NCBI GenBank assembly: GCA_965200875.1
Contig: OZ241456.1
Location: 1,561,774 to 1,625,773 of the forward strand
Reading direction: 5' to 3'
Source: Bdellovibrionales bacterium
GTDB lineage: Bacteria; Bdellovibrionota; Bdellovibrionia; Bdellovibrionales; UBA1609
Length of the DNA stretch: 64,000 bases
In this document: positions 5,467 through 49,905 of the stretch, in pieces
Numbering within the stretch: the stretch's first letter is position 1
How the letters are laid out: each line of letters opens with the position of its first letter
Notes under the pieces: model-generated
What the model was told of the DNA's origin: nothing
Database searches by the model: none
Seen by the model: the letters and a program-made list of their open reading frames with translations, nothing else
Translations under genes and position numbers: made by a program

Positions 5467-5582
5467 TCGGCAATGAAATTGCATATTATTTTCTCCTGAA
5501 CTGATATTTTTTAATATTTATGCAATATTGCTCCGCAGTATCAATACCCTTTATTCCCTATAAAGTTTTATAAGAAATCATC

Positions 5583-6314
5583 ATGTATCGTCTTTCGATT
5601 TTTACTTTAATGACTTTTCTGATGGCTTGCGGGCCTTCAATACCGGATGATTTTTTTAATTCTGGTCCAAGTCCTTATGGAAAATATTCAAAAGCCGGGG
5701 TGGAGTACTTTCAAGAAATTGGATTTTGTTTTGAGTTTGAGGAATGTAAAGACCCTAGTGTAAAAAAATGGACTTCCAAGGTTACGGTTAAAATATCCGG
5801 CAATTACACAGAATCAGATGAAATAGAGTTGGATAACATTATAGAAGAGCTGTCCGAGCTGACCGGGTTATCCATCACAAAGGTAACAGGTAACGCGGAC
5901 ATAAATATTTATTTTACAACACAAAATAAATTTAAAAAATACATTCCCCAATACAACGAAAATAATCCGCAAGATGGTTTGTTTTCCGTTAACTACGACA
6001 AAAATTATGTATTTTATACAGCCACTATTTGTATTGAAGATCGTTTTTCAGAACAAAAAAAGCACCATTTACTCAGAGAGGAATTGACTCAGAGCTTTGG
6101 ATTGGCTCAAGATTCTTACAAATATCCAAACAGTATTTTTCAGCAAGACCCTCAATACAGACCCACAGAATATGCGGAAATTGATAAAGAAGTTATTCAA
6201 ATTCTATACAGTAAAAAAGTAAAACCCGGAATGTCCCCGCAAGATGTGACTAATGTATTAACCATTCAACCCACTCAACCTGATCAACAAGTAGCCAGTG
6301 CCAACAATCAGTAG
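5583..6314 (+). CDS. Putative lipoprotein of unknown function
   Basis: Lipobox LMAC-G at residues 13-17. Conserved-looking HHLLREELTQSFGL segment. No confident family call. Confidence 0.4.
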   Translation: MYRLSIFTLMTFLMACGPSIPDDFFNSGPSPYGKYSKAGVEYFQEIGFCFEFEECKDPSVKKWTSKVTVKISGNYTESDEIELDNIIEELSELTGLSITKVTGNADINIYFTTQNKFKKYIPQYNENNPQDGLFSVNYDKNYVFYTATICIEDRFSEQKKHHLLREELTQSFGLAQDSYKYPNSIFQQDPQYRPTEYAEIDKEVIQILYSKKVKPGMSPQDVTNVLTIQPTQPDQQVASANNQ

Positions 6315-6352
6315 TCCGTGAAGAAGTCTCTATATGTGACATGCTTACTTAC

Positions 6353-9300: not shown

Positions 9301-9910
9301 TGCTTTGCTGAGACAAAATATCTTTTAGACGATTCAAATGGATTTCTGTCAAATCCAGTTTTCGTTCTGCTTCTTTTTTTCGGGAACGAAACTTGGACAC
9401 TCCTGCGGCAGATTCAATCAATGTTCTTTTTTGCTCCGGTTTAGAGGAAATAAAACTTTCCACCGATCCCTGTTCAATAAAACTAAACCCGTGAACACCA
9501 GCACCTGTATCCATGAATATCTCCTGCACATCCTTTAGCCGGCTGGACCGGGAATTAATAAAATATTCTGACTTGCCATCTCTATCTAATCTGCGGGTCA
9601 GCATAATTTCCGAACCATAAGAAACCTTTGATTGCGTGCGTTCCGCTTTGGAAAGTTCCATAATAAGAGAAACTTCCGCTATTCCACTTGGTGGATATTT
9701 TCCCGCGCCGGCAAAAATCAGATCTTCCATAGAAGAACCACGCAGATGCTTAGGGGCTGTTTCCCCCATCACCCATAAAAAAGCATCTACAACATTGGAC
9801 TTCCCACAACCATTAGGTCCTACAATACAGCTGACTCCTTCAGGAAAACGAATAGTCGTGCGATTTCCAAAAGATTTAAAACCTTTCATTTGTATCTGTT
9901 TGATTCTCAT
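6353..9910 (-). CDS. smc: Chromosome segregation protein SMC
   Basis: N-terminal MRIKQIQMKGFKSFG...GPNGCGKSN, long coiled coils, hinge, and C-terminal LSGGEKA...ILDEVDAPLD. Start chosen at the internal ATG at 9910 with an AAGGAA RBS. Confidence 0.9.
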   Translation of the reverse strand: MRIKQIQMKGFKSFGNRTTIRFPEGVSCIVGPNGCGKSNVVDAFLWVMGETAPKHLRGSSMEDLIFAGAGKYPPSGIAEVSLIMELSKAERTQSKVSYGSEIMLTRRLDRDGKSEYFINSRSSRLKDVQEIFMDTGAGVHGFSFIEQGSVESFISSKPEQKRTLIESAAGVSKFRSRKKEAERKLDLTEIHLNRLKDILSQQSTQLAKLRKQSENAEQFRDIKKQIQDKDIEINVWEREQIQKERKSLHARLQEEQRKNADCKEQQEKIRARTQEREKIYQKNKKQLDTLSLSTNSIKTQFVSLEKEIAGLKAFIQVNKQNLYPQSARSYQENRQETLHQMKESQNQIIQLEKKQKDLYEKWEWFKKEYNRVYKNVSSLSEKKQILKTDMMNCRHEEALSKERAQSITEKIKAVNRRAEDGKKLLEQKNQMAQKLKSQKLRLEEALEQKNQMSFNVTNSVQELQKRVDFLKADIQSQEENLGKARMSAEALYSEWNSLKKWASHQSAREKGMQFLLQSSEWKNNFKNTASSIRLPSPVLEKAVSSYMDMRLKSVFCCEEETSVFSALEFLSQKKQGICRFIGFSSCIDSEKIQASSETLRKESGFKFFLKEQAEGNTELIKVLFSNTVVVEDIQTALRLKRKYPSWCFITLAGEVLTQEGDLIGGDFPQAQEEMNILSYQRAMKDLPIQVERKKQQIGALFAQLQKTKTLFHKSSNRLSELSKEGGDFQISILEINKDLESVNRDQDRLISEITDIQREILECQKQVQELQKKRSAILEEQSSLEVSVLQGDLERISKECEKEDREIQTWLKRKDQQWKELAECETALATMKEKNILLRQSYERGEQDEKQALSHSLEKKTLIQKYENQLTEKERKKQVFQQEMEQREEDTKSLMKEQETLREQINADQSFVIQLQETFTKQESAISNLKLQSESLSLKTSTLAERIAEKYQMDLKTLKLVSAEFDREAKEQELQKLNSKLSRMGEVNLLALKEYEELLQENQFYRTQYEDLCISKEKLSQVINRIDSFCSRKFKEVFDEVNSCFSKVWPALFEGGRAELVLTKDPEKGMDIIVQPPGKKVQNMNLLSGGEKAMTAVAVIFSIFLVKPPPFCILDEVDAPLDDINIVRFNSLLAEMAKVSQIILITHNKHTMKECSHLYGVTMEEKGISKVISLNMKSIEQTASV

Positions 9911-9980
9911 TTCCTTATACTCCAATTTGCCTTTCACACAGTTTGTCTTCCGGTCTCCAACCAACACAGGGACTATTAAT

Positions 9981-10165
9981 CGTCTGTGAAAAAGGTTTTT
10001 TATATGTACAGCTTATTGCTCATACCTCACCGCTCGGTCTCAAACATGCGTTTTGCCACACACGCGTCTTTCAGTCGCGGTGGGTATGAGCAATAAGCTT
10101 TTTACCTCTTTCATTTTACAAGAAAACAAAAAGTTCGTTATAAAACCTTGCAATTATTTCCCCTG
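9981..10165. repeat. Family-B structured intergenic repeat, short variant
   Basis: GTGAAAAAGG left end. A 24/23-nt inverted repeat (AGCTTATTGCTCATACCTCACCGC at 10010-10033 and GCGGTGGGTATGAGCAATAAGCT at 10077-10099) surrounds a 43-nt loop. Homologous to 47605-47815, 44391-44530 and 49640-49870. Confidence 0.85.
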
Positions 10166-10230
10166 AAAATTATAAAAAAATCAAATAATAGTAATAGGTT
10201 AAAAGCTTTATCACAGGCTTCTATATAGTG

Positions 10231-10330
10231 GTCCGTGAAAAACCCTTTTCATACAACTGAAAAGCCAAGTTGTTGGCTTTCAGTCCCTTGCAGGTGGGAA
10301 TCAAGTCAAAATAACATACTTTTTCACGGA
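10231..10330. repeat. Family-A MITE/REP-like repeat
   Basis: GTCCGTGAAAAA ... TTTTTCACGG termini and an internal hairpin CTGAAAAGCCAA-GTTG-TTGGCTTTCAG. Homologous to 34916-35055. Confidence 0.85.
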
Positions 10331-10427
10331 GTACTACTTAGATTGACTGGATTATAATAAAGTTTTTTGACACAGTGCAAATAAAACATAGTGGAAATAA
10401 AGCACCAAAAACAAAAAAGGAATAATG

Positions 10428-10516
10428 CGGAGGGGGAGGGATTCGAACCCTCGGTACGGGTTTCCCCGTACGGCCGTTTAGCAAACGGCTGGTTTCAGCC
10501 ACTCACCCACCCCTCC
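10428..10516 (-). tRNA. tRNA-Ser (anticodon GCU)
   Basis: Hand-folded. Acceptor GGAGGGG/CCCCTCC, anticodon stem GCCGT/ACGGC with loop TTGCTAA, long variable arm CGTACGGGGAAACCCGTACC, T-arm GAGGG-TTCGAAT-CCCTC. No encoded CCA. Confidence 0.9.
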
Positions 10517-10619
10517 CGACTATAATTTCATTGATCAGGCAACAACTTATATTTACACTAATTTCCTGTAAAATTCTTAATAAAGAATTTTACACTAAAT
10601 TCCTGTAAAATGTCTATAT

Positions 10620-10693
10620 GCGCCCGTAGCTCAGCTGGATAGAGTACCTGACTACGGATCAGGGGGTCGGAGGTTCGAATCCTTCCGGGCGTG
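10620..10693 (+). tRNA. tRNA-Arg (anticodon ACG)
   Basis: Hand-folded. Acceptor GCGCCCG/CGGGCGT (G1-U72 wobble), D-arm GCTC-AGCTGGATA-GAGT, anticodon stem CCTGA/TCAGG with loop CTACGGA, T-arm GGAGG-TTCGAAT-CCTTC. Confidence 0.9.
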
Positions 10694-10707
10694 CATTTTT
10701 ACTAGAT

Positions 10708-11409
10708 TTATTCCCATTGGATTTTCACTTCTTCAAAATCATCTTCTTTTTTCTGCTTTTCCGGTTCTACAGGTTCTATAGGTTCTAAAATAACCTGCAT
10801 ATCTCCTGTAAAATGCACATTATAACCTTGCTCTCTGGCAGTTCTCACAAAATCAGCAATAAACTCATTTTTCTCCTGTTCATTTCTTTTCTCCAAGTGC
10901 TCTTTCAACCAGTCTTTATGCGCTATTTGCCGACGAATAATCTCTTCCGGATCTTTATAAATATCGTTTTCAAAAGGCTTTTCATCTAAATCCTGGAAAA
11001 CAGATTTTATAGAGGGATCATTAGAAAAACGCACACCCATATCCAAAGAAGAAACATCAGGTTCAATAGAATCTATGCTTTCCACCGGTTTTTTAAATTT
11101 TTCAGAAATAGTGTCATGAGATTGAATATCCTGCAGAAGTTTGAGACTTGCTTTTTTCTGTTCAATTTTTTCATCTATGGTAAGAGCTTTACCGGGTTGA
11201 TCCAAAACAGGGGTAAACGGAGAAGGTACTTTTTTATTTTGAAAAAAATACACACCAGCTGTAATTATACCCACCAAAAATAAAAAAGAGAAAAAATCAA
11301 AATCGTTTTTCTTCCTTTTTTTTGTTTTCGAAACGATTTGTTTTTTTTCTTTCCGGCGGGAATGATTATATTGTGAACGATGTCTGCTTTTTCTGCGACG
11401 AGTAGCCAT
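10708..11409 (-). CDS. Hypothetical membrane-anchored protein with a very basic N-terminus, one TM and an acidic tail
   Basis: Long ORF next to the tRNAs. Arg/Lys-rich first 40 aa followed by the hydrophobic segment FFSFLFLVGIITAGVYFF. No family recognised. Confidence 0.4.
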   Translation of the reverse strand: MATRRRKSRHRSQYNHSRRKEKKQIVSKTKKRKKNDFDFFSFLFLVGIITAGVYFFQNKKVPSPFTPVLDQPGKALTIDEKIEQKKASLKLLQDIQSHDTISEKFKKPVESIDSIEPDVSSLDMGVRFSNDPSIKSVFQDLDEKPFENDIYKDPEEIIRRQIAHKDWLKEHLEKRNEQEKNEFIADFVRTAREQGYNVHFTGDMQVILEPIEPVEPEKQKKEDDFEEVKIQWE

Positions 11410-11675
11410 AACAAAACACTTATCGGTTATAAATTACTTTTTATTAAACAGAAAAATAGAATTGTTCATCCACAAGCTATGGTCTTTTAACCCCTTTGAA
11501 AAGGTTTTTTTCAGTAATACATAAGGAAAAACTTAAAAATCCGGTAAAAATTTGTATATTTATTGGAAAACTGGTATAAATTCTTAGTCTTTCAGGGATG
11601 GGTTAAAGAACGCAATCAAAAATATTATATTACTTCAAAACCTGAGAATTTCCACTCTCACAGAATGGAGGTATA

Positions 11676-13370
11676 GTGAAACACAGAAATTTTTTTTTAA
11701 AAGACCGATTTATTTCCAACCGTATGGGTGTAATCATCTGTATTTTTACAGTTTTTTTGTTTCCAGCTTGGGCAAAACCAGTTCAAACTCAAAAAATAAT
11801 TGTATCTGGTCCTTCTAGTCATCTCATGGAAACGGTTAAAGATATTTATCGTCAAGGAGGCAATATCTTTGACGCGGCTATTGCCGGTGCTTTTACTCTC
11901 AGTGTGACACATCCGTATTTTGTATCTTTAGGTTGTGGAGGTTTTGCCTTGTTAAAAAGCAAAGCGGGAGGCCAGATTCAGGTTTTGGATTTTCGGGAAA
12001 CAGCACCTGTCGCAATATCAGAAGACTTTTATGTCAAAAACAAGCTTTCCTCCACGAAGACAGGATCCGCCGTGGGTGTCCCCGGTTTTGTTGCGGGCCA
12101 ATGGGCCATTCATCAAAAATATGGTTCTCTTCCCTGGGCTGAACTCATTAAACCGGCCATTAAACTGGCTGATAAAGGTTTTATGGTTTCAGGACAGTGG
12201 ATGAATAAAACAAAAGGCAAAAGAAAAAAATTTAATCTTTCCGGACAAAGAATTTTTTTTCACTCTGACGGCACACCTTATTTGCCGGGAAAGTTTGTTC
12301 AGCAAAAAAAACTTTTGAAAGCTTTAAGGCTCATTGAAAGAAAAAATAAAACCTTGTTTTATGACGGATTGATTGGAAAAGATATTGTAAAAACAGTATC
12401 AGAAAACAAAGGAGTGCTAAGTCTTGAGGATTTAAAAAATTATCAGGTACGTTGGCTAAAACCACTCTCTTTTTCTTTTGGTCAATACACAGTATACAGT
12501 ATGCCTCTTCCCAGCTCAGGGGGAATCATACTAGCTCGCGCAGCTCAGATCATACAGCATAAAAAAATACATGGGTTTTCTTTGTACAGTGTGAGCGAAT
12601 GGCATTTGTTGGGGGAAACGCTGGCTTTTTCTTTTCGCCCGCGTAGTCAGATGGGGGATTTAAGCCAGCCAGCTCCTTATTTAAAACACTGGCTTTCCCG
12701 CAAAAAACTACAGGATCTCAGCACTCAAATATCTTTAAAAAAGGTGAAAAAACTTCCGATTTTAAAAGATACTTTATTTCGTGAATCAAAAGACACCACT
12801 CATTTTTCCATAATGAACAATCAAGGGGAAGCGGTGTCCATGACTTTGACTTTAAACGGCAACTTTGGTTCTTTCCTTGTTACAGACAAATATGGCATTG
12901 TTTTGAACAATCAAATGGATGATTTTAATACCCGTCCGGGCAAGCCCAATCAATTTGGTTTAATACAAGGAAGAAACAACAAAGTGAAAACAGGGGGATA
13001 TCGTCCTTTAAGTTCTATGAGTCCCACTATTGTGGAAAAAAACGGAAAAACAGTGATGGTCTTAGGGGCAGCAGGCGGGCCTATGATTATCAGTTCGGTG
13101 TTACAAACTTTATACCGCCATTTGATGAATGGTTTAAATCTGGACTCTGCTGTTCAATCTCCTCGCGTACATCATCAGTTTTTACCACGGGTTTTGTTTG
13201 TGGAAAAAAATCGCTTTTCCCCTGTGGTTTTAAGTTTATTGAGAAAGCGAGGGCATTATATCAAAACCCGGGATTCCATTGCCAAGGTGTATGCGGTTTC
13301 TAGGAGAAAAGATGGACTTCTGGAAGGAGCTTTTGATGCCCGTGGTGAAGGCGCGACAGGCGGTTTATAG
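11676..13370 (+). CDS. ggt: Gamma-glutamyltransferase
   Basis: Autoprocessing/catalytic site DTTHFSIMN, plus GGPMIISSVLQ and MSPTIV motifs. Signal peptide present. Confidence 0.85.
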   Translation: MKHRNFFLKDRFISNRMGVIICIFTVFLFPAWAKPVQTQKIIVSGPSSHLMETVKDIYRQGGNIFDAAIAGAFTLSVTHPYFVSLGCGGFALLKSKAGGQIQVLDFRETAPVAISEDFYVKNKLSSTKTGSAVGVPGFVAGQWAIHQKYGSLPWAELIKPAIKLADKGFMVSGQWMNKTKGKRKKFNLSGQRIFFHSDGTPYLPGKFVQQKKLLKALRLIERKNKTLFYDGLIGKDIVKTVSENKGVLSLEDLKNYQVRWLKPLSFSFGQYTVYSMPLPSSGGIILARAAQIIQHKKIHGFSLYSVSEWHLLGETLAFSFRPRSQMGDLSQPAPYLKHWLSRKKLQDLSTQISLKKVKKLPILKDTLFRESKDTTHFSIMNNQGEAVSMTLTLNGNFGSFLVTDKYGIVLNNQMDDFNTRPGKPNQFGLIQGRNNKVKTGGYRPLSSMSPTIVEKNGKTVMVLGAAGGPMIISSVLQTLYRHLMNGLNLDSAVQSPRVHHQFLPRVLFVEKNRFSPVVLSLLRKRGHYIKTRDSIAKVYAVSRRKDGLLEGAFDARGEGATGGL

Positions 13371-13386
13371 CTCTTTTTTATATAAC

Positions 13387-14076
13387 TTAAAGTGCCATAT
13401 CTTTGCTGAGTGGAATTTGCGTTTTTTCTGAGCAATGTTTCAGATAATTCTCCAATACGGGCGGAAAAGACAAGTCTTTTACTATAGTCAAGCTTCTCAA
13501 AAAAGCAAACAAATGAAAATCGTTAAAACTGATTTGTTCCCCTAGATACCATTGATTTTCCCTATTTCCCGTCTGTTGTGAATGAGAAGGTTTTTTTTGT
13601 AAAAGCTTATCTTTTATTTTTAATAAAGTCTCTCCAATTTCTTTTTTAAATGGTTCTGTGTTTTCCAAAGCTTTGGCAAAAGACCCAATCATTTTCTCTT
13701 TTTTGGTTTGGAAATATTTACGAGCGGAAGGAGTCTTAAACTCTTCCATTGCTGAACTCACCCATCGGGGCATGACGAGGCTACAATAAGCTTTTCGCGC
13801 TTGTTCAAAGATCTCAAACAAAGAAGGATCCTCTTTTTTTGAGATAACCACTGGTGGATATTTTTCATCAATAAATTGCACAATATCCATACTCTCTGGC
13901 ATAAATTTCCCTGGTGTATATTCCAAAATGGGAACCATTTTTTGTCCGATCATGCTCACAGGTGTTTTTTCGTCGTCATTTAATAAAGTAACCTGTTCAA
14001 CAGATATGTTTTTAAGCCCGAAGATCATACGAGCTTTTACACAATAAGGGCAATGATCATAGATAAACAATTTCAT
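13387..14076 (-). CDS. Glutaredoxin 2-like protein (GST fold)
   Basis: N-terminal MKLFIYDHCPYCVKARMIFGLKNI (CPYC active site) and a Grx2-type length of about 229 aa. Confidence 0.7.
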   Translation of the reverse strand: MKLFIYDHCPYCVKARMIFGLKNISVEQVTLLNDDEKTPVSMIGQKMVPILEYTPGKFMPESMDIVQFIDEKYPPVVISKKEDPSLFEIFEQARKAYCSLVMPRWVSSAMEEFKTPSARKYFQTKKEKMIGSFAKALENTEPFKKEIGETLLKIKDKLLQKKPSHSQQTGNRENQWYLGEQISFNDFHLFAFLRSLTIVKDLSFPPVLENYLKHCSEKTQIPLSKDMAL

Positions 14077-20890: not shown

Positions 20891-21985
20891 ATGAATGAAA
20901 AACAAAAAGCACTGGACTTGGCTATTACAGCCATTGAGAAACAATTTGGAAAAGGTTCCATTATGAAGTTGGGTGGAGGCCAGTCCATTTACGATAATGT
21001 GCCGGTTTATAGCACCGGATCGCTGGGCTTGGATATTGCTCTGGGTATTGGAGGACTTCCAAGAGGAAGAGTGGTGGAAATTTTTGGGCCGGAAAGCTCC
21101 GGGAAAACCACTTTGGCACTCACTACTGCCGCTCAGGCACAAAAAGCCGGTGGCACAGTGGCTTTTGTGGATGCTGAACACGCCTTGGATACCAATTACG
21201 CGGGAAAGCTTGGAGTGAATGTGCCAGATATGTTGATCTCTCAACCCGATGCGGGAGAGCAGGCCCTAGAAATAACGGAAACCCTAGTTCGCTCAGGAGC
21301 GATTGATGTTTTGATTGTGGATTCGGTTGCGGCTCTTACTCCCAAAGCGGAGATAGAGGGAGATATGGGGGATTCCCACATGGGCCTTCAGGCGCGCCTT
21401 ATGTCTCAAGCTCTTCGAAAACTCACCGCGGCTATTAACCGAAGCGGAACTTTGGTGATTTTCATCAATCAAATCAGAATGAAAATAGGTGTGATGTTTG
21501 GAAATCCTGAAACCACCACTGGAGGAAATGCCCTAAAATTTTACTCTTCGGTTCGTTTGGATGTGAGAAGAGTGGCGGCTTTGAAAAAAGGGGATCAGGT
21601 GATAGGAAACAAAACCGTAGTGAAAGTGGTGAAAAACAAAATGGCACCTCCTTTTCAACGCGCGGAATTTGACTTAATGTACGGAACAGGAATTTCCCAA
21701 TCTGCTGAGTTGCTGGACTTGGCCTGCAAGAAGGAGATCGTGCAGAAGTCAGGAGCTTGGTATAGCTTTGAAGGAAATAAAATTGGACAGGGAAGAGATA
21801 TGGCCAGGATCTTCCTAGATGAAAATCTCCCAACCAGAAATAAAATCCAACAGGCGGTTTTCAAGGCTTACAGTGTAAAAATAAATACCTCTCAAAGTGA
21901 GCCTTCCAAAGGAAACACACAGGGTAAAGGATCTATGTCGGCAGGTACAGGTAGAAAATCACCAAATGGGAAAACTCCTGCTTAG
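20891..21985 (+). CDS. recA: Recombinase A
   Basis: Near-canonical RecA sequence: [22 protein letters not shown]2 loop region, and [29 protein letters not shown]. Confidence 0.97.
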
Positions 21986-39012: not shown

Positions 39013-40068
39013 TTAGTCACCACTCTTAAGTTTTTTAATTTCTTCTTCGGAAAGCCCCGTGCCTTTGCAAAGAACATGCAAATCCACTCCAGTTTTAAGT
39101 AATTTTGCAATCAGCTCTTTTTGACCTTCCTGACGGCCTTGTTGCATGCCTTGTTGCATACCTTCCTGTATACCTTCCTGCCGGCCTTGTTGCATGCCTT
39201 GTTGCATACCTTCCTGTATACCTTCCTGCCGGCCTTGTTGCATACCTTCCTGTATACCTTCCTGACGGCCTTGTTGCATGCCTTGTTGCATGCCTTGTTG
39301 CCTAGCTTCATCATACGAAGATTTTAATAATGGCATCATAATTCTTCCCTCCTCTTTCACTGTGGCTTGTTCAATCTCTTTTACAATCTCCCAATTAAAT
39401 GCTGGATCATATCGCCGTATATAATCTACTGCTCGACCGATCAATGCCTCTCGCTCACTGGAACTAAGACCCTGACCTATCGTAAAAAGCTCCTTCACTT
39501 TTGATTCATCAAGTCGCCAGATATGTTTTAGAATATACAAAATAGGACGAGTTGTCAAATCCCTGGCCTCCTTTGACACATCTAAAGACTGAATATTCAA
39601 GACCCGCGGACGAAAATTCAACACATTATCTGCAAATCTCTCTTTTAATTCACCTTGGAAATTATACAGGTACTCGTGAAAATCAAGAGGCCATTTACCT
39701 GTCTTTGTTGCACTCTGGTTAATAAACACAGGGAGAATAGGATTTCGTGTATCTTGATAAATCCCTACCTGATATATTAAAAACTGTCTCATCAAATCTT
39801 GGTCGTATTGGCTTTTGTGTTCCATTAAGAATAATATTCTAGCAGGTTTTTGAGAGCTTTTAAGCAGAGCTGAAACCAAGAGGTCCATGCGTTTTTCTTT
39901 TGCGGATTTGTCAATAAAAGTTGTGGCTTCTGTTTTAAGGGTGTTCCAATCAAAAAGTTTCATTTCCTCTTTTGAGAGAACGAGGCTTAGGATATCCACA
40001 CAATACTTGGTTTGTGAGTAAACCTCTTTGAATAAATGATCATGTAAAAAATTTCTTTTTGTTTTCAT
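39013..40068 (-). CDS. Rpn family recombination-promoting nuclease / putative transposase (PD-(D/E)XK, Transposase_31-like)
   Basis: N-terminal FKEVYS..., a D...E-x-K core (RMDLLVSA...ILFLMEHKS), a C-terminal Q/G/M-rich repeat block, and an HTH-like tail GTGLSEEEIKKL. Confidence 0.7.
   Translation of the reverse strand: MKTKRNFLHDHLFKEVYSQTKYCVDILSLVLSKEEMKLFDWNTLKTEATTFIDKSAKEKRMDLLVSALLKSSQKPARILFLMEHKSQYDQDLMRQFLIYQVGIYQDTRNPILPVFINQSATKTGKWPLDFHEYLYNFQGELKERFADNVLNFRPRVLNIQSLDVSKEARDLTTRPILYILKHIWRLDESKVKELFTIGQGLSSSEREALIGRAVDYIRRYDPAFNWEIVKEIEQATVKEEGRIMMPLLKSSYDEARQQGMQQGMQQGRQEGIQEGMQQGRQEGIQEGMQQGMQQGRQEGIQEGMQQGMQQGRQEGQKELIAKLLKTGVDLHVLCKGTGLSEEEIKKLKSGD
39125..39304. repeat. Coding tandem repeat, 15 x 12 nt with 48-nt higher order, inside the Rpn gene
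   Basis: Units of the form CCTTSYTGNNNN (for example CCTTCCTGACGG, CCTTGTTGCATG, CCTTCCTGTATA) encoding QQGM/QEGI/RQEG tetrapeptides. Confidence 0.9.
39326..39350. repeat. 25-bp perfect direct repeat, copy 2, inside the Rpn gene at the N-domain / C-domain junction
   Basis: Identical to 38981-39005. On the coding strand it reads AGGGAAGAATTATGATGCCATTATT, preceded by AGG so that the SD-like AGGAGGG sits 7 nt before the first ATG of an ATGATG pair. Confidence 0.95.
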
Positions 40069-40123
40069 AGCTCTGGAAAATGGAATATAAAAAGATTTTT
40101 GTCAATAGAATTTGTATATTTTT

Positions 40124-42292
40124 CTATTTTAATCTTTTTTCTGCTAATCTTTGGTTTTGTATAGAAAAACCTAATAGACTAGCAATTTTTTGTTTCTTCT
40201 TATATTTAATAGGGTGCATATAAATATATTGTGCCACTATATGCTTTAAAAGACATATAGCCTGAGTATTTTTTTCATCCTGTAGCTCTTTATACAGAAT
40301 CCTGATTCTATCAACATCTAAATCTTTTTTATGCCAAGTATGAATATACAAATTAATTAACTTGGAAGCCACTGTGTTACTCTCTGTGTTTACAGAGTTA
40401 GCAATATCAACAATTTTATAGTATCCTATAGAGTGTATAATTTTGTGTAACCATCCCCATAAAATACCATAAGACATCTGATCCACTATCACTTTACTGA
40501 TTTGTTCTATTTTCTCTGGAGATGATTCTTTTTTGGAAATTTGTTCCAATCTAGATTGGATAAACTTTTCAATTATCGTTCTTTCATTTAACATGAATTC
40601 CATAAAACTTTTTAATAATCTCAATCCGACATTTTGAGCTTCTTTAAATAAAATTTTTAACTTTTCTTTTTCCAATGATCCGTATTGATTTCTAAGAATC
40701 TGTCCAATTATTTCCATCGTTCTTGCAGATTTTTTAATTTCAATTAAAGTGCTATTTTCAGTGTTCATCTGTTCTGCGTCAGTATCATTCGTAGAGCGTT
40801 GTTTATCTTTGATTTCCAATTCTTTACTTCGTTCTTTTTCTACACTATGAGTAGATCCAGGTAATGTAATATTATTAAAAATACTATGCAGTTCTTTGAT
40901 AAATCCTTTTTCATCCCCTGATAAAGACGCTTCCTTATATTGGCTAAATATATTATGAGTATAATCAGTAATATTTTCTATTAAATTTTTATCTTTTGTA
41001 TGATGAGTGATAAAAACTAAAATATTAGCACTGTCTTTTTGATACACTTTAGATATTAATTTATTAATTACTTCTTTTTTGTTGTTAATATTTTCTGCAA
41101 TATACTTGGCAACAAAATAATAATATATATATATGTATCCAAAATTGTATAAATTATTTTTCTCTCTTAATATATTTGCACTTACTAAAATTTCTGAAAA
41201 ATTGCGCCCGCGAGGTACAATAAACTTTTTCCCATATTTTTTTAAAAAATCCTGTAATTGAGTATCGGAGATATTTCTTACATTATTGTCAAACATCCAA
41301 TACGCAAGGTGTGTAAGGAAATTAAAATAAGAGTCTATCTCTTCTACTATAATATGTATTTTAGAGAGTGATATAGTTATCATTGCTTGATAACAATGAC
41401 CATAAGAGGTTTGTTGTAAGTCTTGATTGGGACTTATCAGCTCAATAGAATTAAAAATAGATAAAATAAAAAAAGGGTAGCTTGGAACAATATTATGACC
41501 AATAATAATGTTAATAGAACTAGTGCATTGATCCAATCTGTTTAAATGCTGTTTGTTTTGATAATCAAAATCTGTATCTTCATGTAGGGAGATACACTTT
41601 TTGATAAGTTCTTCTCTTTTTTTATGTCCAAAAACTAATATTGAATAGCTTTTAAAATATTTATATTTTGATTTTTCAGATGGTATATTTGTTAATTGAT
41701 TAGCTAAAAGAATTGCACCTTGAAAATGATCTCGAATGGATAAAATAAATTTATCGAAATCTTCTTTGGTTATTTTCTTTCTTTCATCTACATCATCAAT
41801 AATTAAAATTCTTTTTTCTTTAGGAACATGGATCGACCCTGAAAATTGGTTTTTATATTCTTTTTGTGTAGCTTTTTTCAAAGCTCCAGATTTAGGAATT
41901 TTATTGCCTTCCATGAGGACTGGATAAAAACCGGCCTTCATATATCGCAAAAATAAAATATGAGCTAGGGCTGTCTTTCCACTTTGTTCTTCTCCATAAA
42001 GTAAAATATATGGATTATCAAATGTATTAATTGCTATTAATTTTTCAGAATTTATTTCGTTATGCTCTAAATTTACATCAGCAGTTTTGTCTTTTGTTGT
42101 AATGTCTGGATACACAAACTGTTTATCTAATGGTGTTGTATCAAAAGAGTTTTTCAGTAATTGATTTTGAAAATCTGGGTTTATTTCAGGTTTTGAGATT
42201 TTATCAACAACATGTTTTATACCTTCATATACATTTTTCCAAGCTGAGTCTTTATCATTCCATTTAGTTATAGCTTTGCCATCTTTTGGCAA
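40124..42292 (-). CDS. STAND/NLR-like P-loop NTPase, the C-terminal 722 codons of a TIR-NTPase gene split by an in-frame TAG
   Basis: Walker A GEEQSGKT and Walker B RILIIDDVDE. The ORF begins at an in-frame TTG whose product reads LPKDGKAITKW, the normal continuation of a TIR domain. Confidence 0.65.
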   Translation of the reverse strand: MPKDGKAITKWNDKDSAWKNVYEGIKHVVDKISKPEINPDFQNQLLKNSFDTTPLDKQFVYPDITTKDKTADVNLEHNEINSEKLIAINTFDNPYILLYGEEQSGKTALAHILFLRYMKAGFYPVLMEGNKIPKSGALKKATQKEYKNQFSGSIHVPKEKRILIIDDVDERKKITKEDFDKFILSIRDHFQGAILLANQLTNIPSEKSKYKYFKSYSILVFGHKKREELIKKCISLHEDTDFDYQNKQHLNRLDQCTSSINIIIGHNIVPSYPFFILSIFNSIELISPNQDLQQTSYGHCYQAMITISLSKIHIIVEEIDSYFNFLTHLAYWMFDNNVRNISDTQLQDFLKKYGKKFIVPRGRNFSEILVSANILREKNNLYNFGYIYIYYYFVAKYIAENINNKKEVINKLISKVYQKDSANILVFITHHTKDKNLIENITDYTHNIFSQYKEASLSGDEKGFIKELHSIFNNITLPGSTHSVEKERSKELEIKDKQRSTNDTDAEQMNTENSTLIEIKKSARTMEIIGQILRNQYGSLEKEKLKILFKEAQNVGLRLLKSFMEFMLNERTIIEKFIQSRLEQISKKESSPEKIEQISKVIVDQMSYGILWGWLHKIIHSIGYYKIVDIANSVNTESNTVASKLINLYIHTWHKKDLDVDRIRILYKELQDEKNTQAICLLKHIVAQYIYMHPIKYKKKQKIASLLGFSIQNQRLAEKRLK

Positions 42293-42322
42293 GGCTTGAA
42301 TGTTTTTTAAAACAGTGTCTTT

Positions 42323-42631
42323 CTATGCACAGTCTCTTAAAATTACCGGAATCACAATAGTATTTTTTTTGTCTTTTAAATTTAAAGCAATATTCATCTC
42401 TTTCTTACAATTATTAGAAGCAAGGAAATCTGGGCTGAGTAATAACAAAATAATATGGGCTTCTTTCATTTTTTTTTCTATTACAGGATCCCATTCTTCA
42501 CCTGCTTGGATTTCTTTGTCTGACCAGTCAGATATTTTACCTTCATCTCTTAAAAGAGTAAGGTGTTTTTCTAAAGAGTCTTGATGTTTTGCATCTATAT
42601 GTGTATAGCTGTAAAATAAACGAATGTTCAT
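42323..42631 (-). CDS. TIR domain fragment (102 aa) ending at an in-frame amber codon
   Basis: LFYSYTHIDAKHQDSLEKHL...EAHIILLLLSPDFLASNNCKKEM...VIPVILRDCA-TAG matches the bacterial TIR pattern up to the usual C-D/P-W position. Confidence 0.7.
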   Translation of the reverse strand: MNIRLFYSYTHIDAKHQDSLEKHLTLLRDEGKISDWSDKEIQAGEEWDPVIEKKMKEAHIILLLLSPDFLASNNCKKEMNIALNLKDKKNTIVIPVILRDCA

Positions 42632-42833
42632 AATGAATGTTACCTAGTTAGATTTATTTTAGATTCTCAAAAGAGAATCGTTATAATATATTTCATTCAG
42701 TACTTTTATGCAAATAAATTTTTATATAATTTTTTGAAGATGTACTGTGTTGTTTACGATGTTCCATTTTTTACAGCGAGATTGTCCAAAAAATTGTGAT
42801 GGTTAAGAGATTGTTCAAAGACTTTTATGTAGA

Positions 42834-43427
42834 TTAGTCCCAGGTTGTTTTAGCCCAGCAAATACCAATGATTTTACCTTTGTATTTGTTTTCTCTTAGA
42901 AAGTCCGATATGGCCCGCAAATGTGATCCGGTGGTTATCACATCATCCAAAATATATAATATTTTAGGTTCTTTGTTTTTAAACCCTTTCCAAATATAAT
43001 TTTGCTTAAAAAATTCAGGGTTTCTTTCCCCGGAAAGATGAACAGACTCTTGATCCTCTTTTATTTCAACAGGCCATTCAACCAACCACCCTAGCAGTGA
43101 TTGTAAAAGTTCCCTAAATAAATCTTCAAATCTATTATTATATTCAGGATGAGATTTTGTTTTAGAACTTGGAACAGCAGTTAACACCCAACCCTTTGGG
43201 TTTGTTTTTAGTAACAGTTCAACATCTTCTTTAAATTGCTTAATAGCTTTTTCACGATATGACCATTCTGGCGTGCATCTTTTGGAAGGGGATTTTTTAA
43301 AATTCAAAATCAGAGAATTTGTTGGACCACCTTCATAGCCCGTACTGGATTTGTATTCTCTCGCATATACCCAAATATCGTCAGGTTTTATATGAGGTAA
43401 ATGTTGTTCTTTAAATTTATTCCACAC
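42834..43427 (-). CDS. Phosphoribosyltransferase (type I PRTase, ComF-like)
   Basis: PRPP-binding loop ILYILDDVITTGSHL. GTG start overlaps the DprA-like stop by 11 nt. Confidence 0.7.
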   Translation of the reverse strand: MWNKFKEQHLPHIKPDDIWVYAREYKSSTGYEGGPTNSLILNFKKSPSKRCTPEWSYREKAIKQFKEDVELLLKTNPKGWVLTAVPSSKTKSHPEYNNRFEDLFRELLQSLLGWLVEWPVEIKEDQESVHLSGERNPEFFKQNYIWKGFKNKEPKILYILDDVITTGSHLRAISDFLRENKYKGKIIGICWAKTTWD

Positions 43428-44379
43428 TGGACTGATGATCTATATGTTTTAAAATATCTGAGGTTTCTTTTACTCTGATAGCTCCTCGTTTTTCATAAGT
43501 GGAGGGCCATTTGATGTTTAGATTGTCAAAACAGGAGTCCATTATAAATAGTTTTTTGTTTTGCCTAAAACATTCCCTCGCCTGAACAAGAGATCCACTT
43601 GTATCTCCCGCTTCCACAATGACAGTGGCTTTTGAAATAGACGCCATTGTTTTGTTCCTTCTTGGGAAATGAAATTTACGATAATTAAAAGGTTCTTTAG
43701 CGTATTTGTAAAAAGGGACCTGACTGATCAGTAAAAAATCCTTTGCAATTTTATCCTGTAAATTTTTATTTTCTTTAGGATAATATTTGTTGATAGGGGT
43801 ACCTATAACTCCTATAGTGAGCTTATTATTATCAATAGCCGATTGATGGGCTACTGTATCAATCCCTAAAGCTAAACCTGACACAATGGTAAATCCCTCA
43901 TCTGACAATTCTTTGGATAAATTTCTGGCGTTTTTGATTCCTTCAGCAGAGGGTTTTCTTGATCCCACTATTGAAATGCAGGGAGTTTCTAATATATCCA
44001 AATTTCCTTTGCAATAAAATAGTCCTATGGGGTATTGACTTCTTAAATTCTCCGGGTATTGAAAAGCTTTATTTACAACTATTGAAAAATCTCTCATTCC
44101 ATCACAAAATGCAGTATCTAAAAAGCCTTGCACTTCATTTTTTATTTGGTCAGGAGTCTTTTTAAATGAAAAAAGATCCAGCTGATGTGGTATTTGTTTT
44201 AACGCTTCAGAAGGAGTGTTATTAACAAACATTTCCTGTAAAGCTTTTTCTTTTAAAGTTTTTTCTTCATTGCTGTGGATAGCCCATAGCACTTCATAAG
44301 CAAGCATCTCCTTTGAAGGAGAGATTACATTTTTTTCTATAAAACTTATTATATCCTGCATATTAAAGAATACTGCCAT
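43417..44379 (-). CDS. DprA/Smf-like Rossmann (SLOG superfamily) protein
   Basis: GSRKPSAEG...FTIVSGLALGIDTVAHQSAI...IGVIGTPINKYYPKENKNL...LLISQVPF matches the DprA core. Confidence 0.75.
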   Translation of the reverse strand: MAVFFNMQDIISFIEKNVISPSKEMLAYEVLWAIHSNEEKTLKEKALQEMFVNNTPSEALKQIPHQLDLFSFKKTPDQIKNEVQGFLDTAFCDGMRDFSIVVNKAFQYPENLRSQYPIGLFYCKGNLDILETPCISIVGSRKPSAEGIKNARNLSKELSDEGFTIVSGLALGIDTVAHQSAIDNNKLTIGVIGTPINKYYPKENKNLQDKIAKDFLLISQVPFYKYAKEPFNYRKFHFPRRNKTMASISKATVIVEAGDTSGSLVQARECFRQNKKLFIMDSCFDNLNIKWPSTYEKRGAIRVKETSDILKHIDHQSSVE

Positions 44380-44390
44380 TAAGTTATTAA

Positions 44391-44530
44391 CAAGTCAAAA
44401 TAACACACCGCGAGGCGAGTTCGGCTTTGAGCACGGAGCTGGCGAAGACTGATCCGTGGCAAAACACCTATGTTTTCGTCCTAGCGATGAGGTATGAACA
44501 AAGTAAACCGGTCATATAAAAAGACTTTTT
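44391..44530. repeat. Family-B repeat, diverged copy in inverted orientation
   Basis: CGCGAGGCGAGTTCGGCTTTGAGCAC...GTGGCAAAAC...GAGGTATGAAC aligns to the reverse complement of 47640-47745. Begins 12 bp from the DprA-like start codon. Confidence 0.8.
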
Positions 44531-44734
44531 GTTGCTTGCGATTATTTGTATCCTGATTTCTTCTGTGAAAAATCCCTATAATGTGGAAAAACCCCCGTAA
44601 TGCCTTGTTTTGAACTACATAGTCTTTTGACTTTTCATCAACAACCTATTATTTTGTGCGTTATTACTTTCCGTTTTTAAAGAAATATGTCAAATATTTC
44701 CTAAATAGTACTAAAAACATACAAAAATATAAAA

Positions 44735-45544
44735 ATGCTTAAGCCTTATTTTTCAGAAGATTCTTTCAAGCTCTATCATGGGGATTGTCGTGATGTTTTG
44801 AACACTATTCCTGCGAACAGCGTGGATATGGTTTTTGCAGACCCCCCTTACAATTTGTCAAACGGTGGATTTTCTGTCAAAGCTGGAAAAAGGGTCGATG
44901 TTCATAAAGGAGACTGGGATCAAAGCCTTGGCACAGATAAGGACTTTGCTTTTCATTTAAGTTGGATTAAAGCCTGCCAGCGGGTGTTAAAGCCGGAAGG
45001 CACAATTTGGATCAGCGGAACTTATCATTCCATTTATCAATGCGGTTTTGCACTTCAACAGTCCGGTTTTCGGATTCTTAATGATATCGCTTGGTATAAA
45101 CCAAACGCCGCTCCAAACATTGGTTGTCGCTGTTTTGCGGCAAGCCATGAAACCCTGATATGGGCTTGTAAGGATCCAAAGGCAAAATACACATTTCATT
45201 ATGAAGACATGAAGAACGGTTCTTGGGAAAAAGACTTTATTAAAAAACCAAGCAAGCAAATGCGCTCTGTTTGGGCTGTCAATACTCCAGCCTCTTCTGA
45301 AAAAACATACGGCAAACACCCTACACAAAAACCTTTGGAACTTTTAAAACGAATTGTCAGAGCTTCTTCCAATAAAGGAGATATAATATTGGATCCTTTC
45401 ACCGGAAGCTCCACAACCGGAATCGCCGCTTATCTTTCAGAAAGGTCTTTTATCGGTATTGAGAAAGAAAAAGCTTTTTTGGAGCTATCCATCCATCGCT
45501 TTCAGGATTTAAAAAACTCTTTTCAATTAGAACTTTCCCCTTAA
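44735..45544 (+). CDS. Type II DNA methyltransferase, beta-class N6-adenine/N4-cytosine (CcrM/M.HinfI/M.RsrI-like architecture)
   Basis: FADPPYNL (motif IV) lies upstream of ILDPFTGSSTTG (motif I), followed by the HPTQKP motif. Confidence 0.85.
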   Translation: MLKPYFSEDSFKLYHGDCRDVLNTIPANSVDMVFADPPYNLSNGGFSVKAGKRVDVHKGDWDQSLGTDKDFAFHLSWIKACQRVLKPEGTIWISGTYHSIYQCGFALQQSGFRILNDIAWYKPNAAPNIGCRCFAASHETLIWACKDPKAKYTFHYEDMKNGSWEKDFIKKPSKQMRSVWAVNTPASSEKTYGKHPTQKPLELLKRIVRASSNKGDIILDPFTGSSTTGIAAYLSERSFIGIEKEKAFLELSIHRFQDLKNSFQLELSP

Positions 45545-45550
45545 AATACT

Positions 45551-46333
45551 ATGGCACAAGCAAACAACAAATCTTGGAAAAAAATATTCAATAAATACAA
45601 CATTCACAAACATTCTTTTGATAAAGCACCCTTTCCTATTTCAGCGGAACAAATTAAAAAAGCCTGTCAGGAGTTCGAAAAAACCGTAGCAAAAGAAGTT
45701 CGTATACTTTGTACACAAACCTGCCAAGAAGATCGCCCTGATATTTTTAAAGAAAAAGGACTTTTTTTATTACCTGTTAAAAACGGCCAATATAATATCA
45801 TAAAAGGTGAGGGTTATATTGATATTCCAGCTATTATGGCTACTAAAGATTACACATCAAAATTGGATTTTGAGTTGGATACAGCAAAAGTTGGTCAATC
45901 AGAGATGCAACATCTTGACTATGCTTATGCTTCAAGCCTTATAAAAACATTCATAGGAGATGAAAACCTTGTTTTAACCATTCGAGGCAGGAAATATACA
46001 GAAAGGCCGTTTGAATTTTTTGTTAACAAACACCGGATCCAAGTCTGTGGAGTACAGACGGAAGTGGATGCTGGTTATGAAGGGAGAAATACTGTTGTTT
46101 TAGTGGAAGCGAAAAACAGACAAACGGACAATGTGATTATCAGACAACTTTATTATCCTTTTAGAAAGTGGCAACAAGAAACCAATAAAAAAGTCATAAA
46201 TTTATTTTTTCAGAAAGATTCTAAAACTGGTGTTTTCTCTATTTGGCAATTTGGATTTGATTGCAAAGAAAACTATAACAGTATAAAACTGGAAAAATCA
46301 GAAAAATTTAATATTTATAATGCAAATAAATAG
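45551..46333 (+). CDS. Putative Type II restriction endonuclease (PD-(D/E)XK)
   Basis: Starts 6 nt after the methyltransferase stop. Candidate catalytic motif VDAGYEGRNTVVLVEAK (D...E-x-K). Confidence 0.6.
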   Translation: MAQANNKSWKKIFNKYNIHKHSFDKAPFPISAEQIKKACQEFEKTVAKEVRILCTQTCQEDRPDIFKEKGLFLLPVKNGQYNIIKGEGYIDIPAIMATKDYTSKLDFELDTAKVGQSEMQHLDYAYASSLIKTFIGDENLVLTIRGRKYTERPFEFFVNKHRIQVCGVQTEVDAGYEGRNTVVLVEAKNRQTDNVIIRQLYYPFRKWQQETNKKVINLFFQKDSKTGVFSIWQFGFDCKENYNSIKLEKSEKFNIYNANK

Positions 46334-46362: not shown

Positions 46363-47385
46363 TTAGAGCTTTAAGCTTTCCTGTAGCTCTTTAATTTTCT
46401 CTGCTGATACACCAGTGATTTCAATGATATCAGAAATCTGCATATTTTTTTGGAGCATATTCAAAGCTATTTGTTCCATGCCTGTCTTCAAACCTTTCTC
46501 CATGCCTGTCTTCAAACCTTTCTCCATGCCTGTCTTCAAACCTTTCTCCATGCCTGTCTTCAAACCTTTCTCCATGCCTTTGTTAAAAGCATAAGCTTTC
46601 TCTGCACGCTGATCTCTTAAAAACTTCTCTCGTGCTTCCTCTTCTCGGCGCAAATCCTCATCCTGGGACAAATCTTTTAAATGTTCCATTGCTCTTCTCA
46701 TCTCTTCCCCCTTACTCGTTGATAATATATCCCACTCTCTTTTTCCTATGTGGCAGGACTCTTTTAAAAGATAGCACCATAAGTCCCGCAAATCAACTAT
46801 CTCCTTCAGACTCTCTGGCCTCGCTCTCATAAACTTACTTAATTCCACAAACACTATCTTTTCATCATCGATCAAGGAAGAATGTGGATCTTTATCCGAT
46901 CGCAAAGAAAAGGAATTGATAAAATCTCTATACTTTTTTACCGGAAGAACATCAAAGTCTGTGAAAACCAAAGAATATGCAGGGCAAATACTGCTGTAAT
47001 CTGCTGACTTCTTTAAACTCTCCGTGTAAAGTCTAGACCAATAAAAAAGCACTCTTTTCAAAAAACCTATTTTTAAGACAGACTGTATTTCCACATTCAC
47101 AGTTTCTCCGGTACTGAGTCTTATTCTCAAATCCAGAACAATTTGCTTGTTGTCTGCCAAAGAGGGATAAAGGGAGCTATCTAAGAGAGTTAATGTTTCT
47201 TCATCAACAAGGGAATCCAATGCTTTTTTATCTCCTATAAAGGATATATCTTGCACTTTTTGATTGGGATGAAGGGGTAAAAAGGCATTTAAAAGAGATT
47301 TCAGGACTTCTTTGTTTTTGGAGAAATAGGTCTTGAACATGAGGTCCTGGCTTAAGTTTAGAAATTTGCTACGATTTGTTTTCAT
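46363..47385 (-). CDS. Rpn family / PD-(D/E)XK nuclease family transposase-like protein (PDDEXK_2 / TIGR01784-like)
   Basis: VLDLRIRL...TVNVEIQS core (D...E-I-Q), a C-terminal (GMEKGLKT)x4 repeat, and an HTH-like ITGVSAEKIKEL tail. Confidence 0.7.
   Translation of the reverse strand: MKTNRSKFLNLSQDLMFKTYFSKNKEVLKSLLNAFLPLHPNQKVQDISFIGDKKALDSLVDEETLTLLDSSLYPSLADNKQIVLDLRIRLSTGETVNVEIQSVLKIGFLKRVLFYWSRLYTESLKKSADYSSICPAYSLVFTDFDVLPVKKYRDFINSFSLRSDKDPHSSLIDDEKIVFVELSKFMRARPESLKEIVDLRDLWCYLLKESCHIGKREWDILSTSKGEEMRRAMEHLKDLSQDEDLRREEEAREKFLRDQRAEKAYAFNKGMEKGLKTGMEKGLKTGMEKGLKTGMEKGLKTGMEQIALNMLQKNMQISDIIEITGVSAEKIKELQESLKL
46477..46581. repeat. Coding tandem repeat, 4 perfect copies of a 24-nt unit plus a partial fifth
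   Basis: CATGCCTGTCTTCAAACCTTTCTC at 46477, 46501, 46525 and 46549, then CATGCCTTT. Confidence 0.95.
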
Positions 47386-47604: not shown

Positions 47605-47932
47605 CCCGTGAAAAAGAGTGTTTATATGTACAGCTTATTTGCTCATACCTCACCGCTCGGTCTCAAACATGCGTTTTGCCACACACGCGTCTTTCAGTCG
47701 CGGTGTGCTCAAAGCCGAACTCGCCTCGCGTTGGGTATGAGCAATAAGTTTTTTACATTTTTCCGGCAAACAAAGTGTTTCGTTATAAAACTTTGCAAGT
47801 ATTTTCCGAACTAACAAGTGGCTCGTAAAAAAGCCAAGTTGTTGGTTTTTCAGTCCCGTGAAAACGGGAATTTTGTTGAGTTTTAGGCAAATGTTCCATC
47901 CATTTTCCTTAAAAAAATGTACTTTTTCACGC
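47605..47932. repeat. Composite repeat: family B (long variant with a 27-nt insert) fused to a family-A half copy
   Basis: CCCGTGAAAAAGAGTGTTTATATGTACAGCTTATTTGCTCATACC..., then GGGTATGAGCAATAAG ... AAGCCAAGTTGTTGGTTTTTCAGTCCCGTGAAAACGGG ... CTTTTTCAC. Confidence 0.85.
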
Positions 47933-49446: not shown

Positions 49447-49905
49447 GACGGAGCTTAAAGACGCGTGCGCGAAAAAGTGCATGTTTGATTATTCCAAACG
49501 GGGAAGTATTAGTAAGAGCACTTATCCACTAAACGGACTTATTCAAGATCGACTATTGAGTCACCTGTGAAAAAGTATGTTATTTTTTTCTGGATTTCCG
49601 TTTTCACGGGACTGAAAAGGATTTTTCACGGCTGAATAAATAATAAAGCATTGTTATTACTTGATTTTTTTTATAAAAGGTTCGGAAAAAATTGCAAGGT
49701 CTTACAATACAACCTTTATTTTCTTGCAAAAAGTATCAGTGAAAAAGATTTTACCAATACCCATTGCGAGGTGAGTTCGGCTTTGAACACGTCGCGACTG
49801 AAAGACGCGCGCGTGGCAAAACGCCTGTTTGAGCCCGAGCGGTGAAGTATTGGTAAGAGCATACTCTCACTAAACAGATTTATTCAAACCCAACTATTTA
49901 GGCCG
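49447..49905. repeat. Cluster of three repeat copies: B fragment, A fragment, then a full inverted B
   Basis: 49447-49550 is a B right half, 49564-49633 is an A copy lacking the large hairpin, and 49640-49870 is the long variant of B in inverted orientation with stem TACCAATAC/GTATTGGTA. Confidence 0.85.

Follow-up and report, generated by a model that had tools for sequence, protein, structure and literature searches.

A probable short-toxin ShosTA module beside a broken TIR-STAND gene in a Bdellovibrionales defence island

The genome of a Bdellovibrionales bacterium (GenBank assembly GCA_965200875.1) harbours, within the 64,000-nt stretch of contig OZ241456.1 analysed here (the window), two overlapping minus-strand genes that encode a DprA-like protein and a small phosphoribosyltransferase (PRTase) and that lie directly upstream of a gene encoding a TIR domain and a STAND NTPase. 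Positions are those of the window, except that C1 marks genome-contig coordinates; L and G numbers designate the loci and genomes used for comparison. The first gene of the pair, a shosA-like gene (43417–44379), encodes a putative antitoxin of 320 residues, composed of an N-terminal helical region followed by a DprA Rossmann domain, in which the motifs GSRKPS (residues 139–144), SGLALGIDTVAH (167–178) and YYPKEN (199–204) are found. The second, a shosT-like gene (42834–43427), begins with a GTG start codon and encodes a putative toxin of 197 residues, a single-domain PRTase that contains ILDDVITTGSHL. The end of the first gene overlaps the start of the second by 11 nt (43417–43427, GTGTGGAATAA), which suggests translational coupling of the two, and overlaps of 4–20 nt are also present in the closest relatives (L048–L050) and on one E. 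coli plasmid. This layout is as described in the original prediction, which had reported a DprA/Smf-core protein with these motifs, an 11-nt overlap with the gene of a small PRTase and a TIR-STAND gene starting about 200 bp further on the same strand; the TIR open reading frame (ORF) begins at 42631, 202 bp past the PRTase stop codon.

The larger protein belongs to the ShosA family. It is matched by Pfam DNA_processg_A (E-value 1.7e-55) and, over residues 26–316, by positions 23–296 of the 303-position PADLOC ShosA model PDLC03961 (4.7e-80), whereas the PADLOC PsyrA model gives a far weaker match (5.7e-25). Amongst solved structures, S. pneumoniae DprA (3uqz, 1.4e-33) is nearer than E. coli ShosA (8zva/9vzo, ~6e-19), so that the protein is remote from E. 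coli ShosA and nearer to bona fide DprA. In the alignment to the two E. coli structures, the arginines R139, R234 and R261 of ShosA correspond to R141, R241 and R268 of the window protein; R141 and R241 are retained in all 46 family members compared, whilst position 268 is an arginine or lysine in 45 of them. The earlier assignment of DprA to the SLOG superfamily holds at the superfamily level but no further, the SLOG-family Pfam LDcluster4 match (5.7e-05) being below its cut-off and the PADLOC ThsA STALD match reaching only 0.0083 (13 bits). No fused effector domain was found with Pfam or PADLOC, and the protein is DprA throughout. When compared with three congeneric copies, the gene has a ratio of non-synonymous to synonymous substitution rates (dN/dS) of 0.15–0.19, indicative of purifying selection.

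The smaller protein has no Pfam match at E ≤ 0.01. Its assignment as a PRTase is based on the PADLOC ShosT model PDLC03962 (9e-24, profile positions 18–214 of 237), on a motif characteristic of the loop that binds phosphoribosyl pyrophosphate (PRPP) and on a confident AlphaFold2 model, built on an alignment of homologs, that consists of one PRTase domain (pLDDT 92.8, pTM 0.89). As sequence searches against the PDB, with either the single sequence or a 43-sequence profile, recognised only the PRPP loop (E ≥ 0.013), comparison was made at the level of the fold. The best Foldseek match is to H. pylori ComFC (7p0h; E 1.8e-6, query TM-score (TMq) 0.57), followed by E. coli ShosT (8zvb/c/d; E ~1e-4, TMq 0.47–0.60, 12–13% identity) and then by purine PRTases. 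The family to which the protein belongs comprises 84 detected homologs of 108–237 residues, mostly of about 200, and in an alignment of 43 of these N42, K44, K45, P86, R99, D161, D162, G167 and G188 are invariant. By their motif, D161 and D162 are the likely counterparts of D331 and D332 of E. coli ShosT. The pyrophosphatase-like N-terminal domain that occupies residues 1–164 of E. coli ShosT is missing from the window protein, which has a single domain, and none of the 84 homologs exceeds 237 residues; judged by its sequence, the window toxin is a short subtype of ShosT. Its gene, compared with the same three congeneric copies, is also under purifying selection (dN/dS 0.18–0.23). With ssDNA-binding arginines (ssDNA, single-stranded DNA) kept in one product, invariant PRPP-loop aspartates in the other and dN/dS values of 0.15–0.23, both genes look functional.

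The association of these two genes is conserved well beyond the genus. A scan of distant relatives, limited to one genome per species, identified 47 loci encoding a relative of the toxin, 46 of which have a co-directional ShosA-like gene immediately upstream. The pairing and its gene order are thus maintained across Bdellovibrionota, Pseudomonadota, Bacteroidota, Acidobacteriota, Chloroflexota and other phyla. No third gene is conserved with the pair: when the 417 ORFs lying up to 5 kb from the pairs were scanned with Pfam in four sets, every family was limited to three ORFs or fewer per set. The neighbours range from SIR2-HerA, DarT-Macro, reverse transcriptase, GmrSD, DpnII and Piwi genes through to conjugation and housekeeping genes. 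Of 100 genomes from within the genus or family, seven were found to encode the toxin and three the TIR-STAND protein. The pair's three nearest copies (77, 76 and 66% identity) each have a neighbourhood of their own, without a TIR gene within 8 kb. The short architecture is also carried by the E. coli plasmid NZ_CP010208 (WP_001367158/WP_000175354) and by Burkholderia phage Mana, which is P2-like (CPT_Mana_051/052), in the latter beside cos. These pairs share with that of the window the overlapping genes and the domain organization, with DprA proteins of ~280–300 and PRTases of ~208–225 residues, and their PRTases belong to the same family (tblastn 5e-13 and 6e-11, with 89–97% query coverage), but identity is just 26–28% and the window pair is chromosomal. 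The phage and plasmid genes carry no annotation beyond ‘nucleotide-binding protein’, ‘phosphoribosyltransferase’ or ‘hypothetical protein’. Chromosomes, plasmids and P2-like phages together carry a short-toxin ShosTA branch with many members, whose toxin resembles ComFC as much as ShosT.

The original prediction had identified the pair with the catalogued anti-phage system Rst_DprA-PPRT, an identification upheld by the matches to both PADLOC models under the name ShosTA, by which DefenseFinder has replaced the older one. Its further statement that the mechanism is unknown is outdated, as ShosTA is a type IV toxin–antitoxin (TA) system in which ssDNA and RecA mediate the action of ShosA and in which neither a small-molecule signal nor a TIR protein is involved (PMC11961720, PMC12961424). 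The initial description of ShosTA, which preceded all tests with phages, was of a TA pair. The two-gene system of E. coli APEC O1, cloned alone, defends against T7 and lambda (PMC9122126, PMC11961720), and E. coli ShosTA lowers the plating of T7 by six orders of magnitude (PMC11961720). The system tested by Rousset et al. (pFR105) originates from APEC O1, the same strain whose 424-residue ShosT was characterised by Pu et al., and it is therefore presumably of the long type. E. coli ShosT's toxicity requires the residues D331/D332 and R285, which bind PRPP, whilst the pyrophosphatase mutant R56A is only marginally less toxic (PMC11961720), so that the pyrophosphatase-like domain is probably accessory to the system rather than defining. 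E. coli ShosA does not bind ShosT; instead, its arginines R139, R234 and R261 mediate ssDNA binding, it forms dimers and it recruits RecA, and the triggers proposed for the system are phage ssDNA and host shut-off by T7 Gp0.7 (PMC11961720, PMC12961424).

In common with the ShosTA systems of E. coli APEC O1 and KTE181 (PDB 8ZVA–8ZVD, 9VZO), the window pair consists of two co-directional genes, the DprA-like first and the PRTase second, which encode a DprA Rossmann domain with three basic residues at the ssDNA-binding positions and a PRTase fold with an acidic pair in the PRPP loop, and which are located in a hotspot or defence island. The pair is therefore very probably an autonomous TA or abortive-infection module of the ShosTA family, of the short-toxin subtype; that is, an ordinary two-gene ShosTA module and a member of an already known family. 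The toxicity of one product, the antitoxicity of the other, their trigger and their role in defence may be extrapolated from the E. coli system. In such a mechanism, the ShosT-like PRTase would bind PRPP through its aspartate loop and transfer or consume phosphoribosyl groups on some acceptor, which would disturb nucleotide and DNA metabolism and damage replication. The ShosA-like protein, without binding the toxin, would bind ssDNA and recruit the host RecA, and thus repair or prevent the damage; a RecA gene is present in the genome (PF00154, 2e-137, at C1:1582679–1583470, corresponding to window positions ~20906–21697). On phage infection, host shut-off or an excess of phage ssDNA would then remove or divert the antitoxin, leaving the toxin to kill or arrest the cell.

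Several points weigh against this interpretation. The window toxin, with 197 residues, lacks the 164-residue pyrophosphatase/HAD-like N-terminal domain of the two-domain, 424-residue E. coli ShosT, and it is so distant from the characterised protein that phmmer gives no match to ShosT in the PDB. No experiment on the short subtype was found in the literature. A terminator-like site is also absent between the PRTase and TIR genes (scan of 39900–44800), so the two may be co-transcribed. PsyrTA/RqlHI offers a further parallel, with a DprA-like antitoxin, a toxin carrying a PRTase domain and the same TA logic, but the RecQ-like helicase of the PsyrT/RqlH toxin is absent from the 197-residue protein and, as described above, the PsyrA profile fits the antitoxin far less well than that of ShosA.

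The TIR-STAND gene downstream of the pair is interrupted. Its TIR part (42323–42631, minus strand; Pfam TIR_2, 3.8e-15) ends in a single in-frame TAG (42323–42325), after which an in-frame reading frame of 722 residues encodes the STAND NTPase and sensor part (40124–42292, minus strand; PADLOC PDC-S60, 2.9e-77, and Pfam nSTAND_NTPase4). NCBIfam DS8_antiphage likewise matches this second part, but with 508 bits against a cut-off of 790. In intact homologs, TIR and STAND form one protein of 841–877 residues, and the position of the TAG is occupied by tryptophan in 15 of 15 aligned homologs. Apart from this codon the frame is undamaged, so that, barring an error in the assembly, the interruption is of recent date. 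That the genome as a whole recodes or reads through amber codons was considered and rejected: TAG terminates 185 of 1196 long open frames and is an ordinary stop codon, and at junctions where a single stop separates two long frames it is not clearly enriched (18 of 89, against 15.5% expected). The gene is best read as a separate, single-gene defence gene, DS-8-like and similar to nucleotide-binding leucine-rich repeat (NLR) proteins, that has been inactivated by a nonsense codon.

The ShosTA pair, the TIR-STAND gene, a Lamassu-like cassette and a type II restriction-modification (R-M) system are grouped in a low-GC defence island, which is bracketed by genes of Rpn-like nucleases. On one flank of the block is an Rpn/YhgA-like PD-(D/E)XK gene (39013–40068, minus strand; Pfam Transposase_31, 2.2e-19) and on the other a PDDEXK_2 (Rpn-like) gene (46363–47385, minus strand; Pfam PDDEXK_2, 2.3e-33). 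In the congeneric loci L002 and L048, too, the pair is flanked by PDDEXK_2 genes. The R-M pair (44735–46333, plus strand) is composed of a methyltransferase (44735–45544; Pfam N6_N4_Mtase, 3.8e-56; PADLOC MTase_II, 4.1e-95) and a DUF6996/DUF6997 endonuclease (45551–46333; Pfam DUF6997, 2.9e-48; PADLOC REase_II, 1.3e-35). Between the shosA-like gene and the divergent methyltransferase gene, the segment 44403–44530 belongs to a dispersed repeat some 130 bp long, of which whole-genome blastn revealed 15 further copies at 73–94% identity, two of them in the window (at ~47611–47736 and ~49766–49850) beside the second Rpn-like gene.

The juxtaposition of these genes had led the original prediction to suggest a possible nucleotide-signal link between the TIR enzyme, the SLOG protein and the PRTase, read here as one system in which an NAD-derived signal made by the TIR would be sensed by the DprA-like protein and modified or acted upon by the PRTase, with plain co-location of independent systems as the alternative. 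In favour of such a link are the same-strand adjacency of the genes and the absence of a predicted terminator from the spacer, the superfamily membership of DprA with its weak LDcluster4 and STALD matches, and a resemblance to Thoeris, where the gene of a TIR protein (ThsB) adjoins that of a SLOG-containing effector (ThsA). ThsA, however, combines a SLOG/STALD domain with a SIR2, transmembrane or Macro effector, whereas the window protein has no effector and, with its ssDNA-binding arginines kept, is predicted to be a DprA-type ssDNA binder; the window TIR, moreover, is fused to a STAND NTPase, and hence to a sensor of its own as in single-gene systems. No homolog of the TIR or STAND part lies near any of the 46 distant pairs, and the TIR-STAND gene adjoins the pair in none of the seven toxin-bearing relatives; the only one of the 100 relatives with both (G044, OZ251471.1, a metagenome-assembled genome (MAG) of Bdellovibrionales from the same genus) has them 723 kb apart. 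Conversely, the 8-kb surroundings of the three nearest intact orthologs of the TIR-STAND gene (65, 64 and 49% identity) contain neither a DprA nor a PRTase gene. The pairs are not strictly free of TIR neighbours, since one unrelated TIR gene was found within 5 kb of one of the 46: in L033, from Pedobacter gandavensis, a pentapeptide-repeat-TIR gene, different in architecture from the window TIR-STAND gene, lies two genes downstream, a placement that could be read in favour of the link. A whole-genome TIR_2 search of 39 of the pair-bearing genomes gave 35 matches in ~172 Mb, from which ~0.09 TIR neighbours of pairs would be expected; the one observed fits what clustering in defence islands gives. 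Weak sub-cut-off TIR_2 matches were not counted as neighbours, one being ~21 kb from the pair in L003 and another ~11 kb away in L029, if on the same contig. The two units also differ in composition (TIR-STAND GC 27–30% and third-position GC (GC3) 20–24%; pair GC 34% and GC3 27%; genome GC 37.1%), the TIR gene is broken whilst the pair is under purifying selection, and E. coli ShosTA functions without any TIR. The 202-bp spacer (42632–42833) is AT-rich (25% GC) and unique in the genome; it contains a promoter-like site on the minus strand (42714–42685), but the number of promoter-like sites in the scan equals the shuffled expectation and the scan is therefore uninformative on operon structure. 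A three-gene signalling system is thus exceedingly unlikely and close to refuted, the TIR–SLOG–PRTase link is not supported and falls by the test that the original prediction itself had set, and it is the alternative of independent systems that the neighbourhood data and the autonomous defence by the E. coli system favour. Amongst the genomes compared, adjacency of the pair and the TIR-STAND gene is unique to the window genome, and it is a defence-island coincidence. This is a clean negative, in which a tempting story of a TIR gene beside a SLOG gene reflects island neighbourhood only, and for this reason the pair does not merit further pursuit as a possible signalling system.

Two other accounts of the pair itself differ from a ShosTA defence module in the role that they assign to it. 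That it is a spare natural-transformation set, of DprA with a ComF-like PRTase and without any role in defence or toxicity, is suggested by the solved-structure match of the toxin model to ComFC, by a weak NCBIfam comF match (TIGR00201, 3.2e-5) and by the closer similarity of the antitoxin to S. pneumoniae DprA than to E. coli ShosA. Both proteins nevertheless fall far below the equivalog cut-offs (160.9 against 191.15 bits for dprA, TIGR00732, and 23.9 against 233.55 bits for comF), and the genome holds another DprA gene (C1:293665–294288) and a better ComF candidate (C1:99033–99587) elsewhere. ComF is expected to carry an N-terminal four-cysteine zinc finger, which the window PRTase lacks, having just two cysteines (C51 and C190). 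Its patchy distribution, in seven of 100 relatives and each time in a different neighbourhood, its carriage by P2-like phages and plasmids and its low-GC island setting amongst R-M, TIR-STAND and Lamassu-like genes are further arguments against a transformation role, which is very improbable. A related view, possible but doubtful, is that short DprA–PRTase pairs are a distinct branch derived from competence DprA–ComFC, in which a ComF-like PRTase, without a pyrophosphatase partner, would act on ssDNA or a DNA-linked acceptor rather than the purine pool, with the DprA-like antitoxin either repairing that same ssDNA or competing for it. This is suggested by the fold of the toxin model, in which the similarity to ComFC is matched by that to ShosT itself, and no mention of ComFC together with ShosTA was found in the literature search. 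The pair could instead be a working TA system that merely stabilises its island or a mobile element through addiction, with no meaningful phage defence in its host. The flanking Rpn-like nuclease genes and the dispersed repeat, the mobility of the pair among congeners and the initial description of ShosTA as a TA pair are all compatible with addiction. Set against this are the strong protection from T7 conferred by the homologous E. coli system and the consistent company of defence genes (SIR2-HerA, DarT-Macro, reverse transcriptase, R-M and HsdR); addiction and defence are, in addition, not mutually exclusive, and a role limited to addiction is quite unlikely. The short branch without a pyrophosphatase domain would be a simpler system in which to seek the acceptor of the PRTase.

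A number of smaller observations concern the neighbourhoods of these genes in other genomes. The two nearest intact orthologs of the TIR-STAND gene (L051 10629–12203 and L052 10637–12205) share the two genes that come after them, which encode a protein of ~279 residues without a Pfam match and then a DUF5131 protein of ~242 residues, and they have a Transposase_31 gene upstream. In the window, the ~279-residue and DUF5131 genes are missing and the Rpn-like gene directly follows; the arrangement in the two orthologs may represent a module of three genes, or it may be that the window has a truncated copy. In L033, an FRG-domain protein and the pentapeptide-repeat-TIR protein are encoded directly downstream of the ShosTA pair on the same strand (10658–13127). 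A dense defence island in L001, from a Bdellovibrionales MAG, contains a DarT-Macro fusion, HerA with SIR2, ShosTA and, after it, a reverse transcriptase (4181–13748). A link between retrons and the PRTase, prompted by the proximity of reverse transcriptase genes to the pair at L001 and L049, was rejected, being neither conserved elsewhere nor present in the window. Finally, the congener G051 has two ShosT-like copies about 20 kb apart (C7:496791–497360 and 476504–476854), each with one in-frame TAG, and decaying defence genes seem common in the genus of the window.

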